DNA from: Escherichia coli | Lineage (GTDB): Bacteria > Pseudomonadota > Gammaproteobacteria > Enterobacterales > Enterobacteriaceae | Assembly (NCBI RefSeq): GCF_001677475.2 | Contig: NZ_CP015229.1 | Length of the DNA: 64,000 nt | Direction: 5' to 3' (one strand) | Shown: one piece after another, positions 2,812-26,224 of the stretch | Layout of the letters: the number at the start of each line of letters is the position of its first letter | Position numbering within the stretch: the stretch's first letter is position 1 | Program-made: the position numbers and the translations under genes | Notes under the pieces: generated by a model | What the model saw: only the letters and a program-made list of their open reading frames with translations | Told to the model about the DNA's origin: nothing | The model's database searches: none

Positions 2812-3300
<489 letters not shown>

Positions 3301-3332
3301 CGGCCATGCGTAATCATCAAAAGACGTTCACG

Positions 3333-4487
3333 ATGCTGCTGGTTCTGGTGCTGATTGGTCTTAATATGCGACCACTGCTCACCTCCGTCGGGCCACTGCT
3401 ACCGCAATTGCGCCAGGCAAGCGGAATGAGCTTTAGCGTGGCTGCCCTGTTGACCGCTCTGCCGGTGGTTACCATGGGCGGGCTGGCGCTGGCCGGAAGC
3501 TGGCTTCATCAGCATGTCAGCGAACGTCGCAGCGTCGCCATCAGTTTGTTACTGATTGCCGTCGGTGCATTGATGCGTGAGCTTTACCCCCAAAGTGCGC
3601 TGCTGCTTAGCAGCGCACTGCTTGGTGGAGTGGGGATCGGCATCATTCAGGCGGTGATGCCTTCGGTAATTAAGCGGCGGTTTCAGCACCGTACGCCACT
3701 GGTGATGGGGCTGTGGTCCGCGGCTCTGATGGGCGGCGGTGGACTTGGTGCCGCCATTACGCCCTGGTTAGTTCAACATAGCGAAACCTGGTATCAAACA
3801 CTCGCCTGGTGGGGGCTGCCTGCCGTTGTTGCGCTCTTTGCCTGGTGGTGGCAAAGCGCCCGCGAGGTCGCCTCTTCTCACAAGACAACAACCACTCCGG
3901 TTCGCGTGGTATTTACTCCCCGCGCGTGGACGCTGGGTGTTTACTTCGGTCTGATTAACGGCGGTTACGCCAGCCTGATTGCCTGGTTACCCGCTTTCTA
4001 TATTGAGATTGGTGCCAGCGCGCAGTACAGCGGTTCCTTGCTGGCATTGATGACGCTTGGGCAAGCCGCAGGAGCTATGCTGATGCCTGCTATGGCTCGC
4101 CATCAGGATCGGCGCAAACTTTTGATGCTGGCGCTGGCGTTACAACTGGTGGGTTTCTGCGGCTTTATCTGGCTGCCGCTGCAATTGCCGGTATTGTGGG
4201 CGATGGTGTGTGGGTTAGGTCTGGGCGGCGCATTTCCGCTCTGTTTGCTGCTGGCGCTCGATCACTCTGCTCAACCCGCTATTGCTGGCAAACTGGTGGC
4301 GTTTATGCAGGGGATCGGTTTTATCATCGCCGGGCTTGCCCCGTGGTTTTCTGGTGTGCTGCGTAGTATCAGCGGCAATTACCTGATGGACTGGGCGTTT
4401 CATGTGCTGTGCGTCGTTGGGCTGATGATCATAACCCTGCGTTTTGCACCAGCACGTTTTCCGCAACTGTGGGTCAAAGAGGCATGA
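3333..4487 (+). CDS. cynX: MFS cyanate transporter
   Basis: Multi-span hydrophobic MFS-like protein; start chosen at internal Met giving 384 aa; longest ORF begins at 3306. Confidence 0.88.
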   Translation: MLLVLVLIGLNMRPLLTSVGPLLPQLRQASGMSFSVAALLTALPVVTMGGLALAGSWLHQHVSERRSVAISLLLIAVGALMRELYPQSALLLSSALLGGVGIGIIQAVMPSVIKRRFQHRTPLVMGLWSAALMGGGGLGAAITPWLVQHSETWYQTLAWWGLPAVVALFAWWWQSAREVASSHKTTTTPVRVVFTPRAWTLGVYFGLINGGYASLIAWLPAFYIEIGASAQYSGSLLALMTLGQAAGAMLMPAMARHQDRRKLLMLALALQLVGFCGFIWLPLQLPVLWAMVCGLGLGGAFPLCLLLALDHSAQPAIAGKLVAFMQGIGFIIAGLAPWFSGVLRSISGNYLMDWAFHVLCVVGLMIITLRFAPARFPQLWVKEA

Positions 4488-4509
4488 TGCGACGCTTGTT
4501 CCTGCGCTT

Positions 4510-4580
4510 TGTTCATGCCGGATGCGGCTAACGTAGATCACTGAACTTGTAGGCCTGATAAGCGCAGCGCATCAGGCAAT
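4510..4580. repeat. REP/BIME palindromic units between cynX and lacA
   Basis: gccggatgcggc and gtaggcctgataagcgcagcgcatcaggc motifs typical of enterobacterial REP elements. Confidence 0.75.
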
Positions 4581-4589
4581 TTTTATAAT

Positions 4590-5201
4590 TTAAACTGACG
4601 ATTCAACTTTATAATCTTTGTAATAATAGTGCTTATCCCGGTCGTTTATTTCGCGAATAACCCGACAAGGAACGCCAGCGGCCACGACGTTTGGTGGAAT
4701 GTCTTTTGTGACGACACTACCCGCGCCAATAACAGAATTATCCCCGATGGTGACGCCAGGATTAATGACCACATGACTTCCGATCCAGACGTTATTGCCA
4801 ATCGTTATCGGAAAAGAGTACATCTCACCGTTTTTTCTCAATTCATGGTGCACAGGGTGTCCCGTAACGGAAAGAGTAACGTTGGGTGCAATCAGTACGT
4901 TATCACCGATCGTTACCGTGTAGTCGTCTACAATGGTTAAATTGAAATTTGCATAAAAATTGCGGCCTATATGGATGTTGGAACCGTAAGAGAAATAGAC
5001 GGGAGGTTCTACCCAGGCGTTTTCCCCTACCGTTGCAAACATTTCTTTAATCAGGCTTTCTCTTTTTTCAACTTCTGATGGATGCGAGTGATTAAACTCA
5101 TACATTAACGTTTTCCCACGAAGTCTTTTTTCCGGTAAGCCTTCGCACATATCGGTAAATAGCTTGCCTGCTTTTATTCTTTCGGTCATTGGCATGTTCA
5201 T
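4590..5201 (-). CDS. lacA: galactoside O-acetyltransferase (thiogalactoside transacetylase)
   Basis: Hexapeptide-repeat acetyltransferase; start placed at MNMPMTERI giving 203 aa; last gene of lacZYA. Confidence 0.95.
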   Translation of the reverse strand: MNMPMTERIKAGKLFTDMCEGLPEKRLRGKTLMYEFNHSHPSEVEKRESLIKEMFATVGENAWVEPPVYFSYGSNIHIGRNFYANFNLTIVDDYTVTIGDNVLIAPNVTLSVTGHPVHHELRKNGEMYSFPITIGNNVWIGSHVVINPGVTIGDNSVIGAGSVVTKDIPPNVVAAGVPCRVIREINDRDKHYYYKDYKVESSV

Positions 5202-5225
5202 TGCGATCATTCCGTCCTGATATGT

Positions 5226-5260
5226 TGGTCGGATAAGGCGCTCGCGCCGCATCCGACATT
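5226..5260. repeat. REP-like palindrome in the lacY-lacA intercistronic region
   Basis: ggtcggataaggcgctcgcgccgcatccgac inverted-repeat motif of REP type. Confidence 0.6.
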
Positions 5261-23012: not shown

Positions 23013-23786
23013 TCAGAATTTCCAGGTCAGATGGGCTGCAAGTTGCAGACCGTTATAATCATCGGTTGGGGTGTCGTACCACACTTTACCTGCCGTCAGC
23101 CCGAGATTAAGTTGCTCAGTCAGCGGTTGAATACGTTGCAGACTGACGCTCTTCATGCTGCCGTAGCGTGTTTCTGGCGTCCAGTCATAGGTATAAGCGC
23201 CTGTTCCGCGGCTTAGCCATAGTTGCGTATAACCAATGCCGCGCGGGTCATTCAGACGCACGGAAATCATATTGCTATAACTACCACCTGCATCGCTGGA
23301 GTCATAATGGGTATAGCGGTAGCTGGTGATCACCGGGCCAGTATAGAGTGATACGCCGCCTTGCCAGGCATCGACTTCGACATCATCGTAATATTTAGTG
23401 TAGCGATAACCGGTCGTGAAAAGCGTTTTTGGTAACAGGGCCAGGTTAATATCCTGACGAAAATCCTGGCGGGCAAAGACCGGCGTATTATCCGCAAAGG
23501 CAATACCCGTTCGGGTTGTCAGCCAGTTATTCCATTTATACCAGACCGCACCCTGACCGCGAGTGGCATTGAAATGTTCAGTTTCATAATCACGACGCCC
23601 CTGGGAAAGATTAAAAAGCAGCGTTGCGTTATCAACTTTCGCCACCAGTTCAGCATACGCTAAATTACGGTTGCCATGATCGCCAGAATAATCGGTAAAA
23701 TCGTAGCCCGCGGTAATGGAAGTTAACCCGGCATAAGCGGGCAATGCGCTAAAAATGGCCGCCGCTAATAACGTCCGTTTTATCAT
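23013..23786 (-). CDS. yaiO: outer-membrane beta-barrel protein
   Basis: 257-aa ORF with signal peptide (MIKRTLLAAAIFSALPAYA) and C-terminal aromatic residue (..HLTWKF). Confidence 0.9.
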   Translation of the reverse strand: MIKRTLLAAAIFSALPAYAGLTSITAGYDFTDYSGDHGNRNLAYAELVAKVDNATLLFNLSQGRRDYETEHFNATRGQGAVWYKWNNWLTTRTGIAFADNTPVFARQDFRQDINLALLPKTLFTTGYRYTKYYDDVEVDAWQGGVSLYTGPVITSYRYTHYDSSDAGGSYSNMISVRLNDPRGIGYTQLWLSRGTGAYTYDWTPETRYGSMKSVSLQRIQPLTEQLNLGLTAGKVWYDTPTDDYNGLQLAAHLTWKF

Positions 23787-23787
23787 T

Positions 23788-24498
23788 TTAATCTCCTGTA
23801 CGGATAATTTCTTGTCGGAGTGAATAAGTTCCGGTAGGTAAATTACGTTCTACAATCACGCGCGGGCCAAGTTGCGTGTTCGGGGAAATAATTCGCCCAG
23901 GCAAAATAATAACTTGTACGCCAAGGCGTGAACGCTGCCCGATATAACAACCTAATTTATCGCATCCGGTAGCGAAAATTCCCTCTGGAGTTCGAACAGA
24001 CACGGGCTGTTCATCCAGACGATGATTACTGGTACGTACTTGTGCGCCTAAATATGCCTGGTTTTCAACTACCGAGTCGGCAATAAAACATTGCGGACCA
24101 ATCGTTGCTTCCGCTTCAATAACCGCATTTTTAATCTCGGTGGCAAAACCAATTTTTACGCCATTACTGATTATTGTGCCAGGACGAATAAACGCATAAT
24201 TACCTATCAGGCAGTTTGCGCCAATCACTACCGGACCCTGAATAACGGCACCATGACAAATACGGGTATTCGCGCCGATAACAACTTCACCTGCAGTTTC
24301 ATCAATAATTACCTGGTCTGCAATCTGAATATTTTTCTCTTTAACATTAAGCTTCAGATAGTTTTTCAGTTCCTGTGACAGAAGGTTGGGAATAAGCGGT
24401 TGACGCTTCCACCAGTGCGGAATAGCGGGTGGGTTTGTCGCGCTGAGGTTCGCGTCCAGTAAAAAAGGCAATAAGTCCATAAATAATCCAGATGGCAT
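23788..24498 (-). CDS. yaiX: hexapeptide-repeat (left-handed beta-helix) acyl/acetyltransferase; start uncertain because the longest ORF overlaps yaiP by 152 bp
   Basis: Repeated [LIV]-G-x-x-x-x hexapeptide motifs (VIGANTRI, VIGANCLIGNYAFIRPG, IGDN-like); single uninterrupted frame with no IS insertion. Confidence 0.8.
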   Translation of the reverse strand: MPSGLFMDLLPFLLDANLSATNPPAIPHWWKRQPLIPNLLSQELKNYLKLNVKEKNIQIADQVIIDETAGEVVIGANTRICHGAVIQGPVVIGANCLIGNYAFIRPGTIISNGVKIGFATEIKNAVIEAEATIGPQCFIADSVVENQAYLGAQVRTSNHRLDEQPVSVRTPEGIFATGCDKLGCYIGQRSRLGVQVIILPGRIISPNTQLGPRVIVERNLPTGTYSLRQEIIRTGD

Positions 24499-25543
24499 AA
24501 GCTAATAATACATACACAACGGAAAGCGGCGCTAAAGGCACCAACAACCAGCAACGATGAAACCAGGCGCTAAAAGCACCAATAACACAAACTACGCCGA
24601 CCCAGATAAGCGGAAACATTGCCAACACCACACCATGCGGCCCGGTGGTGATGAATTCATTAAACCAGGTAGTGAGATAAATCCCAACGCCATAAAGCAC
24701 AACCAACAGCATAGGAAATATACTGAAGATACCAAAGCGGCTAAATAAAAGTCTTTTATGCAGGCGCATACAGACCGCGTAGCCCACAATCCAACGCCGC
24801 CAGCGACGCCACTCCTCACGCGGGCTGTTGCATTCCTGTGGGTATACGATGCAGCGATTCGCCTGCCGAATACGGTAGCCGTTTGCCACTAATGTCCAGG
24901 TGAGATCAAGGTCTTCGACTTTAGTACGATCCGAGAAACCGAACTTACGCAATACATCAGTACGGAACATCCCGCAGGCACCGCTGATGATAAACGGTGC
25001 GCCGCCCAGGAGCTGCTGTAGCGTGCGCTTCATAACAATCATCGGCAACTTTACGGTCGCGCGGATGTGCGGTAACAGCCCCGCGCCTTTCAACGCAGTA
25101 GAGGGAATGCCGCCTACGGCATCAGCACCGCGCTCAATTTCTGCCAGCATATAGCCCATTCCGTCTTGATCGGGCGGAACATAGGTGTCGGCATCACTTA
25201 AAAAAACCTGGTCGCAGGTGGCGTAATTGAGGCCATTCATCAGCGCACCACCTTTACCGGTATTTTTTTGCGTGACGGCAACAAAGCGGTCGCCCCATTT
25301 GCGTTTGACTTTCGCCATGACCGCTTCGGTATTGTCCGTGGAGCCGTCGTTAACGCAAATTACCCGGCAAAAATAAGGGTTACGCAGTAGATTATCCAGT
25401 GACTGCGCCAGACACGGGCCTTCGTTATACGCAGGTATAATGGCGTCAATACAGCCTTTGTTTTGACTGGGTTTACGTCTTAGCGTACTTAAAAACCATA
25501 GCAACATTGCTATGGACATACAGATAAATATCCAGGTTTTCAT
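24347..25543 (-). CDS. yaiP: family-2 glycosyltransferase with N- and C-terminal transmembrane segments
   Basis: 398-aa ORF; GT2 signatures (IIPAYNEG, VNDGSTDNT, DAD); hydrophobic N-terminus and several C-terminal TM helices. Confidence 0.88.
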   Translation of the reverse strand: MKTWIFICMSIAMLLWFLSTLRRKPSQNKGCIDAIIPAYNEGPCLAQSLDNLLRNPYFCRVICVNDGSTDNTEAVMAKVKRKWGDRFVAVTQKNTGKGGALMNGLNYATCDQVFLSDADTYVPPDQDGMGYMLAEIERGADAVGGIPSTALKGAGLLPHIRATVKLPMIVMKRTLQQLLGGAPFIISGACGMFRTDVLRKFGFSDRTKVEDLDLTWTLVANGYRIRQANRCIVYPQECNSPREEWRRWRRWIVGYAVCMRLHKRLLFSRFGIFSIFPMLLVVLYGVGIYLTTWFNEFITTGPHGVVLAMFPLIWVGVVCVIGAFSAWFHRCWLLVPLAPLSVVYVLLAYAIWIIYGLIAFFTGREPQRDKPTRYSALVEASTAYSQPSVTGTEKLSEA

Positions 25544-25552
25544 GCAATTTGC

Positions 25553-26224
25553 TCAAAGAATCATTTTATGAATTACAAAGCCTTCACCCAGATCGCTATT
25601 GACCTGTTGCCCGCGAAATTGTGCAACTGCACGCAGGCGATCATGACGCATATAATCACGTCGTTCCTGGCTTTTATGTTTTTTTAATGCAGCAAGTTTG
25701 ACTGTGAAATATTCTTCTTTAACGGATTCAAAAACCTGAGGCATAAATGAAAGCCAGGTACTTGGGGTTTCGTAGCCGAGAATTTGTGGAATAGTGCGGC
25801 AGGCAACCATTGAAGCTTGATAAACAGCGAGATGATCCTGATGGCGGTCGGCATCATGCATGGTATATACCCGCATGATTTCAACATCAGAAGGAATTTG
25901 ATTTTTAATGATGTCTTCCAGGGCGGAAATCATATCATTGAGCTGTAAATGCGCGCGGGTGTCAGCAAAATTAAGATGAATAGTTTGGTGGCACCCTAAT
26001 ATCTTTAGGGCGTTGCGAGATTCTTCATGGCGATCGATTATTCCATCTGTGCCAGAGTTGCCGGTAGTCATCACCACGGCTGCGATATAAATTCCTTTTT
26101 GCGCAAGACGAGCAAGCGATGCGCCACAGCCTAATTCTATATCGTCAGGATGTGCGCCAATAGCAAGGATACCCTTTCTTTTATTTGCCGAAGAAAGGAG
26201 GGCTGAATCTAAAACTTTATCCAC
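25553..26224 (-). CDS. yaiS: PIG-L/LmbE-family N-acetylglucosaminyl deacetylase
   Basis: 223-aa ORF with N-terminal AIGAHPDDIELGCG motif characteristic of LmbE-like deacetylases. Confidence 0.85.
   Translation of the reverse strand: MDKVLDSALLSSANKRKGILAIGAHPDDIELGCGASLARLAQKGIYIAAVVMTTGNSGTDGIIDRHEESRNALKILGCHQTIHLNFADTRAHLQLNDMISALEDIIKNQIPSDVEIMRVYTMHDADRHQDHLAVYQASMVACRTIPQILGYETPSTWLSFMPQVFESVKEEYFTVKLAALKKHKSQERRDYMRHDRLRAVAQFRGQQVNSDLGEGFVIHKMIL

Follow-up and report, generated by a model that had tools for sequence, protein, structure and literature searches.

Probable origin of the yaiP-yaiX overlap of Escherichia coli by stop loss and start relocation

Where does translation of yaiX begin, and does this gene genuinely overlap yaiP, the gene that precedes it? 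The question is raised by a 64,000-nucleotide (nt) stretch of Escherichia coli DNA (contig NZ_CP015229.1; hereafter the window), whose open reading frames (ORFs) and Pfam matches place yaiS, yaiP, yaiX and yaiO head to tail on the minus strand (Table 1). A sequence-only reading of the window had noticed that the longest yaiX frame begins inside the 3′ end of yaiP, a family-2 glycosyltransferase (GT2) gene, and had offered two interpretations: an unusually long out-of-frame overlap suggestive of translational coupling, or a true yaiX start at a non-ATG codon just after the yaiP stop. Public databases hold at least six different N-termini, namely proteins of 236, 230, 197, 193 and 174 amino acids (aa) and a pseudogene feature from codon 26, and the correct start matters for any work in which yaiX is expressed or deleted, such as a 2026 overexpression study (PMC13058169). 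The comparative analysis reported here suggests that the overlap is probably real and that it arose by two ordinary mutational steps.

The geometry is as first described. Positions 24347..24498, or 50 codons plus 2 nt, are shared by yaiP and the longest yaiX frame, which confirms the 152-nt figure; the yaiP stop is the TAA at 24349..24347, and the yaiX frame lies one base downstream of the yaiP frame (+1). The reported absence of an ATG near 24347 also holds, and extends further than had been said, since the yaiX frame carries no ATG, GTG or TTG between codons 11 and 90. What had been missed are two further in-frame codons, an ATG at 24480 (codon 7) and a TTG at 24471 (codon 10). Together with ATG 24498, these are the only canonical in-frame starts upstream of a Trp-Trp pair (WW) at codons 29-30, and the next one after codon 10 is codon 91. 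Thus, codons 11-90 of the window frame offer no downstream canonical start that would restore an orthologue-like yaiX length. An open extension of 50 codons has a chance of ~0.09 in random sequence, (61/64)^50, and is unremarkable by itself. The length of the ORF is no argument, and the significance of the overlap rests on comparative evidence.

The ancestral junction and its change in enteric lineages

The 236-aa ORF retrieved 530 homologues, 85 of which were aligned. WW aligns to E. coli codons 29-30 in 69 of these 85, and 49 of them start exactly one residue ahead of it (MWW or VWW). A scan with one genome per species yielded 15 loci, among which at least the pairing of GT2 and acetyltransferase genes with a conserved junction recurs in a Pseudomonas, an Acinetobacter, Sphingomonas/Sphingomonadaceae metagenome-assembled genomes (MAGs) and other proteobacterial MAGs. 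Nine non-enteric or MAG loci have an ATG or GTG immediately before TGGTGG, and seven of the nine, with GT2 upstream, combine a 14-nt overlap with an AGG Shine-Dalgarno (SD) sequence. At these junctions, GT2 ends in ...RDKPTRY-x-x-V-V-x-stop and the acetyltransferase starts with (A/G)TG TGG TGG, 14 nt before the end of the GT2 stop. The SD, AGG(T), lies ~7 nt upstream of the start and is supplied by the Arg codon (AGG) of TRY, while six bases are shared by WW of the acetyltransferase and VV of GT2. Homologues with an MWW or VWW start and a clear AGGA SD are also found in two MAGs of the candidate phyla radiation (Candidatus Kaiserbacteria, L015, and Paceibacterota, L016; ~2998..3610), where the loci have no GT2 tail upstream.

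Some tblastn matches in distant taxa extend to query residues 1-28, including residues 1-4. They were rejected as evidence of a conserved long N-terminus, being an alternative-frame shadow of the conserved yaiP/GT2 motif TGREPxRDKPTRY.

Both elements of this junction have changed in enteric bacteria. In Pseudomonas, Acinetobacter, Sphingomonas and others, the GT2 stop follows the start of WW by 11 nt. This distance is 17 nt in one Salmonella/Enterobacter-type lineage and 32 nt in another; it is 68 nt in Escherichia, Superficieibacter, an Enterobacter and three Citrobacter lineages, and 83 nt both in an Ignatzschineria MAG and in a second copy of the operon in E. coli (L023). The yaiX frame stays open throughout while the position of the enteric yaiP stop shifts, and both frames are open across the junction in Escherichia, the three Citrobacter lineages, Enterobacter, Superficieibacter and the Ignatzschineria MAG. 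In E. coli, the ancestral stop position reads GCG (24406..24404) and yaiP is 20 codons longer. The proximal yaiX start, for its part, is variable among enterics (MPWW, MLPWW, MPPRWW, TTG-FAWW, or an ATG directly after WW) and has been lost in E. coli and Citrobacter. E. coli has ATT where the MLPWW and MPPRWW relatives have their proximal ATG, and the Arg codon that formerly supplied the SD is CGC in place of AGG. E. coli yaiX exceeds the modal N-terminus of the family by 22 residues if counted from codon 7 (M7), or by 28 if counted from codon 1 (M1).

Comparison of living lineages thus shows an ancestral junction, a moved stop and a decayed proximal start. Loss of the GT2 stop in the lineage of E. 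coli, Citrobacter, Enterobacter and Superficieibacter has extended yaiP by 20 codons over the region encoding the YaiX N-terminus. The proximal SD and ATG have decayed, in E. coli from AGG to CGC and from ATG to ATT. To these two changes we add a proposed third, in which initiation would have shifted 22 codons upstream to a pre-existing ATG, at 24480, assisted by a weak UGGA SD derived from Trp-Ile codons of yaiP. This ATG pre-existed because the conserved Tyr-Gly of yaiP is written TAT-GG.

Reading-frame constraint and the start of yaiX

Nucleotide variability by codon position was compared among the lineages with the 68-nt or 83-nt tail. Between ATG 24480 and WW, the minimum numbers of changes at yaiP positions 2, 3 and 1 are 3, 17 and 8, compared with 28, 143 and 63 over 100 upstream yaiP codons; variation in this segment, with its peak at yaiP third positions, resembles that of DNA encoding yaiP only. 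The pattern is reversed between WW and the yaiP stop, with mean pairwise differences of 0.29, 0.30 and 0.50 at yaiX positions 1, 2 and 3. The signal is also seen in yaiX codons 31-43, a stretch absent from every RefSeq model: amino-acid identity there is 0.47 in the yaiX frame versus 0.20 in the yaiP frame, and nucleotide variation is 0.67 at yaiX third positions versus 0.39 and 0.36 at the others. Selection on codons 31-43 in the yaiX frame implies that yaiX translation begins upstream of codon 31. Both WW and these codons are part of yaiP as well, so that no choice of start reduces the doubly read stretch to less than about 68 nt. In these alignments, the yaiP tail behaves as a free rider on a yaiX-selected segment. 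We consider it very probable that yaiX starts upstream of WW. The long out-of-frame overlap suggested by the sequence-only reading therefore stands in substance, although an overlap of 134 nt is better supported than one of 152 nt.

The shorter figure corresponds to a start at ATG 24480. We calculated synonymous variation per yaiP codon, normalised by degeneracy, in seven long-tail lineages (yaiP identity 73-87%). The global synonymous minimum of yaiP falls at codons 347-365, where the observed/expected ratio is 0.27, a value reached in none of 20000 within-class permutations (P<5e-5). Here a 26-nt invariant block reads YGxIAFFTG in yaiP and M-D/E-L-L-P-F-L/S-L-D/E in yaiX. Its onset coincides exactly with the codon-7 ATG; in the codons immediately before it, third positions show normal variation. 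The residue encoded by yaiP codon 357 is L, F, P or I depending on the lineage, whereas the yaiX frame there stays D/E-L. No suppression of this block is seen (observed/expected 0.87) in a sister clade of five sequences that has a proximal ATG (MPWW). ATG 24480 is also the sole candidate preceded by a suitably spaced SD-like match; the anti-SD duplex is -3.1 kcal/mol at this codon, and those of the other candidates are at least -1.9 kcal/mol or badly spaced. Finally, the 230-aa form from codon 7 corresponds to a 1737-member cluster (European Nucleotide Archive, ENA, assemblies). Taken together, these observations make ATG 24480 the likely yaiX start, with a 230-aa product whose N-terminal peptide would be (M)DLLPFLLDANLSATNPPAIPHWWK and an overlap of 134 nt.

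Other nucleotide-level signals at the junction were sought. A sigma-70 promoter scan of 24250..24750 found none, so that an internal promoter is no obvious explanation of the invariant block, and an Rfam scan at a permissive threshold found no known RNA element. RNA folding around the candidate starts did not discriminate between them; the 101-nt region at 24480 is no more stably folded than shuffled sequences (z=+0.97), a measure that is uninformative for a translated region.

Under a 24480 start, the first 44 yaiX codons plus 2 nt would lie within yaiP, and the overlap would be a mosaic of three parts: the 26-nt block constrained in both frames, a linker constrained for yaiP only, and the WW segment, constrained for yaiX. 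The yaiP tail would be translated, since no earlier stop exists. For yaiX, we infer from the conservation pattern that ribosomes initiate at 24480 and that the nine-residue peptide is the selected object, with initiation presumably taking place de novo inside the translated yaiP mRNA rather than by termination-reinitiation. Expression of yaiX is probably low. A more far-reaching proposal, which we put forward only tentatively, is that the 134 nt form a genuine three-part dual-coding region in which M-D/E-L-L-P-F-L-L-D is a new, selected YaiX N-terminal peptide overprinted on YGxIAFFTG of YaiP. If so, the peptide might, for example, dock the acetyltransferase to a membrane synthase.

Several observations weigh against a start at 24480 and the relocation that it implies. 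The 2026 study identified no SD upstream of yaiX (PMC13058169), and we found no experimentally mapped yaiX start in the literature. The UGGA element is weak, and its presence is dictated by the yaiP coding sequence. The seven lineages of the synonymous-site analysis are not independent, and the sister clade's minimum around its own start (codons 368-382, observed/expected 0.42) is not significant (P=0.16). Among the long-tail lineages, linker codons 16-28 show no constraint in the yaiX frame. Within Escherichia, six of the eight variants between WW and the stop are nonsynonymous in yaiX, and polymorphism shows no yaiX-frame preference, the variants being too few (eight from WW to the stop and one in the invariant block); yaiX constraint within the species is weak or unmeasurable. 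Residues 1-25 of the AlphaFold model have a predicted local distance difference test (pLDDT) score below 50, a low confidence that cannot be used to judge translation of the leader, given that only ~12 sequences cover alignment columns 1-28. A different role at the nucleotide level is conceivable for the invariant block, and ATG 24498 and ATT 24423 may act as additional starts.

Each of these two codons has also to be weighed as the sole start. Initiation at ATG 24498 (M1), the head of the open frame, would preserve the 152-nt overlap and the 236-aa protein of KEGG-type annotation; the 58 KEGG E. coli genomes analysed in the 2026 study include a 236-aa variant, whose overexpression gave some ampicillin resistance (PMC13058169). 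This ATG is in frame, but its conservation across species ends with Escherichia: Citrobacter, Enterobacter and Superficieibacter have TAC-TCT, TAC-GCT and the like instead. It also lacks an SD-like match (+0.9 kcal/mol), and the codons from 24498 to 24480 vary freely at synonymous sites, invariance beginning only at 24480. We regard M1 as an improbable start.

The near-cognate ATT at 24423 (codon 26) would give a protein of ~211 aa with a family-typical N-terminus, a 77-nt overlap and very low expression. Its position is homologous to that of the proximal ATG in the Enterobacter MLPWW and Superficieibacter MPPRWW loci (L022 and L008), it is formed by yaiP Tyr374, which is written TAT in all seven long-tail lineages, and the K-12 RefSeq pseudogene feature starts at this codon. 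However, ATT and ATA are poor initiators, the codon is ATA in two lineages, and no SD precedes it. Initiation there would also leave unexplained both the block that begins at ATG 24480 and the conservation of D/E-L over a variable yaiP residue. An ATT start is accordingly unlikely.

It could be argued instead that E. coli yaiX is a decaying gene without proper initiation signals, its frame a relic that yields little or no protein. The ancestral SD and ATG are indeed gone, the absence of an SD was remarked on in PMC13058169, IS2 interrupts yaiX in K-12, the match in SCEC020023 covers an IS1 transposase, and the nonsynonymous share of variants within Escherichia is higher in yaiX (24/85) than in yaiP (4/25). 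The junction is lacking from ~11% of complete E. coli genomes, 4830 of 5426 having it at ≥80% coverage; the same coverage of the 1-kb locus, established for 4456 genomes, says nothing on ORF integrity. Decay is nevertheless hard to reconcile with an ORF that is intact in all 12 Escherichia loci compared, with 61 synonymous and 24 nonsynonymous variants, or with a junction more conserved than its flanks: identity is ≥99% over the 181-nt junction in 4364 of 4861 matching E. coli records (90%), and over the surrounding 1 kb in 972 of 4941 (~20%). The synonymous minimum at the new start, moreover, holds across genera. According to the EcoGene 3.0 paper, whose sole source is a meeting abstract (Dague et al. 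2011), vegetative clumping is facilitated by a repaired K-12 yaiX and needs yaiP as well (PMC3531124); it follows that the intact gene is expressed and does something. A decaying yaiX thus seems quite unlikely.

We consider it very unlikely that yaiX starts at or near the yaiP stop and that the upstream ORF is an untranslated accident, which is the position of current RefSeq models. These place the start at CTG codon 44 (24369; 193 aa), at CTG codon 40 (24381; 197 aa) or, in strains with GTA changed to GTG, at GTG codon 63 (24312; 174 aa). A large survey that classed long co-directional overlaps as mispredicted starts would agree with them (PMC2478687), and an AGGA adjoins CTG 24369, but at a distance of just 1 nt. 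The non-ATG start just after the yaiP stop offered as an alternative by the sequence-only reading is not supported either: no canonical start exists there, and it would delete sequence that is conserved family-wide (WW), selected in the yaiX frame (codons 31-43) and confidently modelled (pLDDT 79-91 for residues 31-50). The RefSeq assignments are also inconsistent with one another. The E. coli RefSeq loci L025, L026 and L027 have junction alleles that are identical or one residue apart, all with GTG at codon 63; despite this near-identity, the annotated start is CTG codon 40 in L026 and L027 and GTG codon 63 in L025. The database yaiX starts are probably wrong, and the RefSeq models, whether they use CTG or the strain-specific GTG, remove conserved and selected sequence.

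Production of YaiX partly as a YaiP-YaiX fusion, by +1 slippage on a U6 run (GCC UUU UUU ACU; CCUUUUUUAC at 24459..24468, minus strand), can be set aside as extremely unlikely: the run does lie inside the invariant block and synonymous minimum, yaiX is the +1 frame of yaiP, and Phe-Phe is TTT TTT in six of seven long-tail lineages and mostly TTC TTT in the sister clade, but L022 has TTT TTC, the slippery codon is followed by the common codons UUU and ACU rather than by a slow or stop codon, no Rfam element was found, and slippage leaves unexplained why the four codons before the run, from the ATG exactly, are invariant as well.

ATG 24480 thus remains our preferred start, and the three main candidates can be separated genetically. 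ATG 24498, ATG 24480 and ATT 24423 are each made by a TAT codon of yaiP (Tyr349, Tyr355 and Tyr374, respectively), and each can therefore be removed by a yaiP-synonymous TAT to TAC change that leaves YaiP unaltered. Other edits call for care, as those within 24347..24480 alter yaiP too.

Features of the locus and its neighbours

The coordinates of the junction and of the surrounding genes are collected in Table 1. RefSeq coordinates for yaiP are identical to those of the window ORF. Unlike its K-12 counterpart, which RefSeq annotates as a pseudogene feature broken by IS2, yaiX is uninterrupted in the window.

Table 1. Genes, candidate starts and segments of the yaiP-yaiX junction in window coordinates
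Feature	Position	Strand	Remarks
yaiS, PIG-L deacetylase	26224..25553	minus	intact 223-aa ORF, GTG start
yaiP, family-2 glycosyltransferase with membrane C-terminal part	25543..24347	minus	398 aa; Pfam PF00535, E=6.7e-28
yaiX longest reading frame, hexapeptide-repeat/left-handed beta-helix (LbH) acetyltransferase	24498..23788	minus	236 aa, ATG start (M1)
Proposed yaiX coding sequence from M7 (MDLLPFLLD...)	24480..23788	minus	230 aa; rests on block onset, SD-like match and 1737-member cluster
yaiO, outer-membrane barrel	23786..23013	minus	ORF
Proposed real overlap, two frames	24347..24480	minus	134 nt; from yaiP stop and putative start
Weak SD-like UGGA	24487..24490	minus	6 nt upstream of ATG 24480, from yaiP Trp-Ile codons
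Segment 1, 26-nt invariant block ATGGAnnTATTGCCTTTTT(T/C)ACTGGA	24480..24455	minus	invariant in 7 enteric lineages
Segment 2, yaiP-dominated linker (R-E-P-x-R-D-K-P-T-R-Y)	24415..24454	minus	variable in yaiX frame, predicted disordered
Segment 3, yaiX codons 29-50, yaiX-selected, structured in model	24350..24414	minus	from identity, variation and pLDDT
ATT, yaiX codon 26, decayed ancestral-type start	24421..24423	minus	homologous to proximal ATG of MLPWW/MPPRWW relatives
TGG TGG (W29 W30), conserved family N-terminal motif	24409..24414	minus	yaiP Leu-Val; Val-Val in most relatives
yaiP 3′ extension, codons 379-398 plus stop	24347..24406	minus	relative to non-enteric orthologues
CTG codon 44, RefSeq 193-aa start	24367..24369	minus	AGGA only 1 nt upstream
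yaiX/yaiO junction	23784..23797	minus	SD AGGAGA in yaiX 3′ end; TAA 23790..23788, 1 nt, ATG 23786

The closely spaced yaiX/yaiO pair, with its strong AGGAGA, contrasts with the SD-poor start of yaiX. Upstream, yaiS is marked in ETEC1716 and AST46 as a pseudogene that is incomplete, and in K-12 it encodes 185 aa; antisense to its 3′ end, at ~25568..25687 on the plus strand, RefSeq annotation of related strains places the 39-aa YkiC. The IS2 interruption of K-12 yaiX was noted at 4014..5239 of locus L004, and the IS1 transposase in SCEC020023 (NZ_CP025950.3) was found under the 1-kb match, which suggests that disruption of the yaiX locus by insertion elements is recurrent. The operon encoding PIG-L, GT2, LbH and YaiO proteins occurs twice in Citrobacter braakii ATCC 51113 (L006 and L009), with diverged copies also in E. 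coli (L023). A close relative, protein P0051, has its record on a plasmid of E. coli, and plasmid matches among the E. coli genomes number 27-30.

Comparison with known systems

YaiX scores 64.6 bits for the Pfam hexapeptide-repeat family (Hexapep, PF00132; cut-off 27, E=4.4e-18), and its AlphaFold model reaches pLDDT >90 in the beta-helix. The top Foldseek matches of the model are ST0452 and GlmU, with 33% identity to the LbH domain of ST0452 (E=4.6e-12), so that YaiX is predicted from its model to be a GlmU-like LbH acyltransferase. Hexapeptide repeats are common to YaiX and to the LbH domain of GlmU-type proteins (Sulfolobus tokodaii ST0452, PDB 5z09/2ggo; E. coli GlmU). Unlike these proteins, YaiX is a stand-alone domain of ~205-230 aa without a nucleotidyltransferase domain, and its gene lies in an operon with those for a PIG-L deacetylase, a GT2 and the YaiO outer-membrane barrel. 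The biology of this operon, a clumping-associated polysaccharide system, is left unexplained by the overlap.

Short overlaps of the ATGA/TAATG type, with 1-4 nt shared or a stop-start distance well under ~20 nt, allow translational coupling (PMC10666635), and the 14-nt junction of non-enteric relatives, with its SD in the upstream gene and its start 11 nt from the stop, resembles them. The E. coli junction does not, since ATG 24480 lies 131 nt, and ATT 24423 74 nt, upstream of the yaiP stop. In reporter experiments, termination-reinitiation was nearly abolished at a stop-start distance of ~20 nt for starts downstream of the stop (Huber et al. 2023, PMC10666635). By extrapolation from these downstream starts to an upstream one, the E. 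coli arrangement probably cannot use termination-reinitiation coupling. Translational coupling in its classical form, the other part of the sequence-only proposal, is thus not supported for E. coli; of the junctions compared, only those of the non-enteric relatives have the 14-nt form typical of coupled pairs.

A survey of 338 prokaryotic genomes recognised no real co-directional overlap longer than 60 nt, the longest accepted case being holD/rimI with 32-56 nt (PMC2478687). Like yaiP/yaiX, holD/rimI is a same-strand overlap of conserved genes that is conserved at the nucleotide level across enteric genera and has a genus-specific length. The two differ in size, as yaiP/yaiX overlap by at least 68 nt with any start and by 134 nt with the best-supported one. 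Both yaiP and yaiX are longer than their distant orthologues, and the ortholog-length rule of that survey would flag the pair as a class v misannotation, in which 5′ and 3′ extension errors are combined. Judged from the sequences of the whole clade, however, both extensions are genuine features.

Unidirectional overlaps are generally held to arise by stop loss, which elongates the upstream gene at its 3′ end, and by start replacement, which elongates the downstream gene at its 5′ end (Fonseca et al. 2013, PMC3887535). Both steps of this model are seen at yaiP/yaiX: the stop has moved 17, 32, 68 and 83 nt past WW, and the yaiX start lies directly before WW, then 1-3 codons before it and, with a start at 24480, 22 codons before it. 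The process is thus a known one and calls for no new mechanism. What yaiP/yaiX adds to the standard model is that both steps occur at a single junction, that the intermediates persist in living lineages, and that the new start would reuse an ATG embedded in a conserved Tyr-Gly. Our findings thus offer a clean and testable teaching case of stop loss and start relocation, with the intermediates still living.

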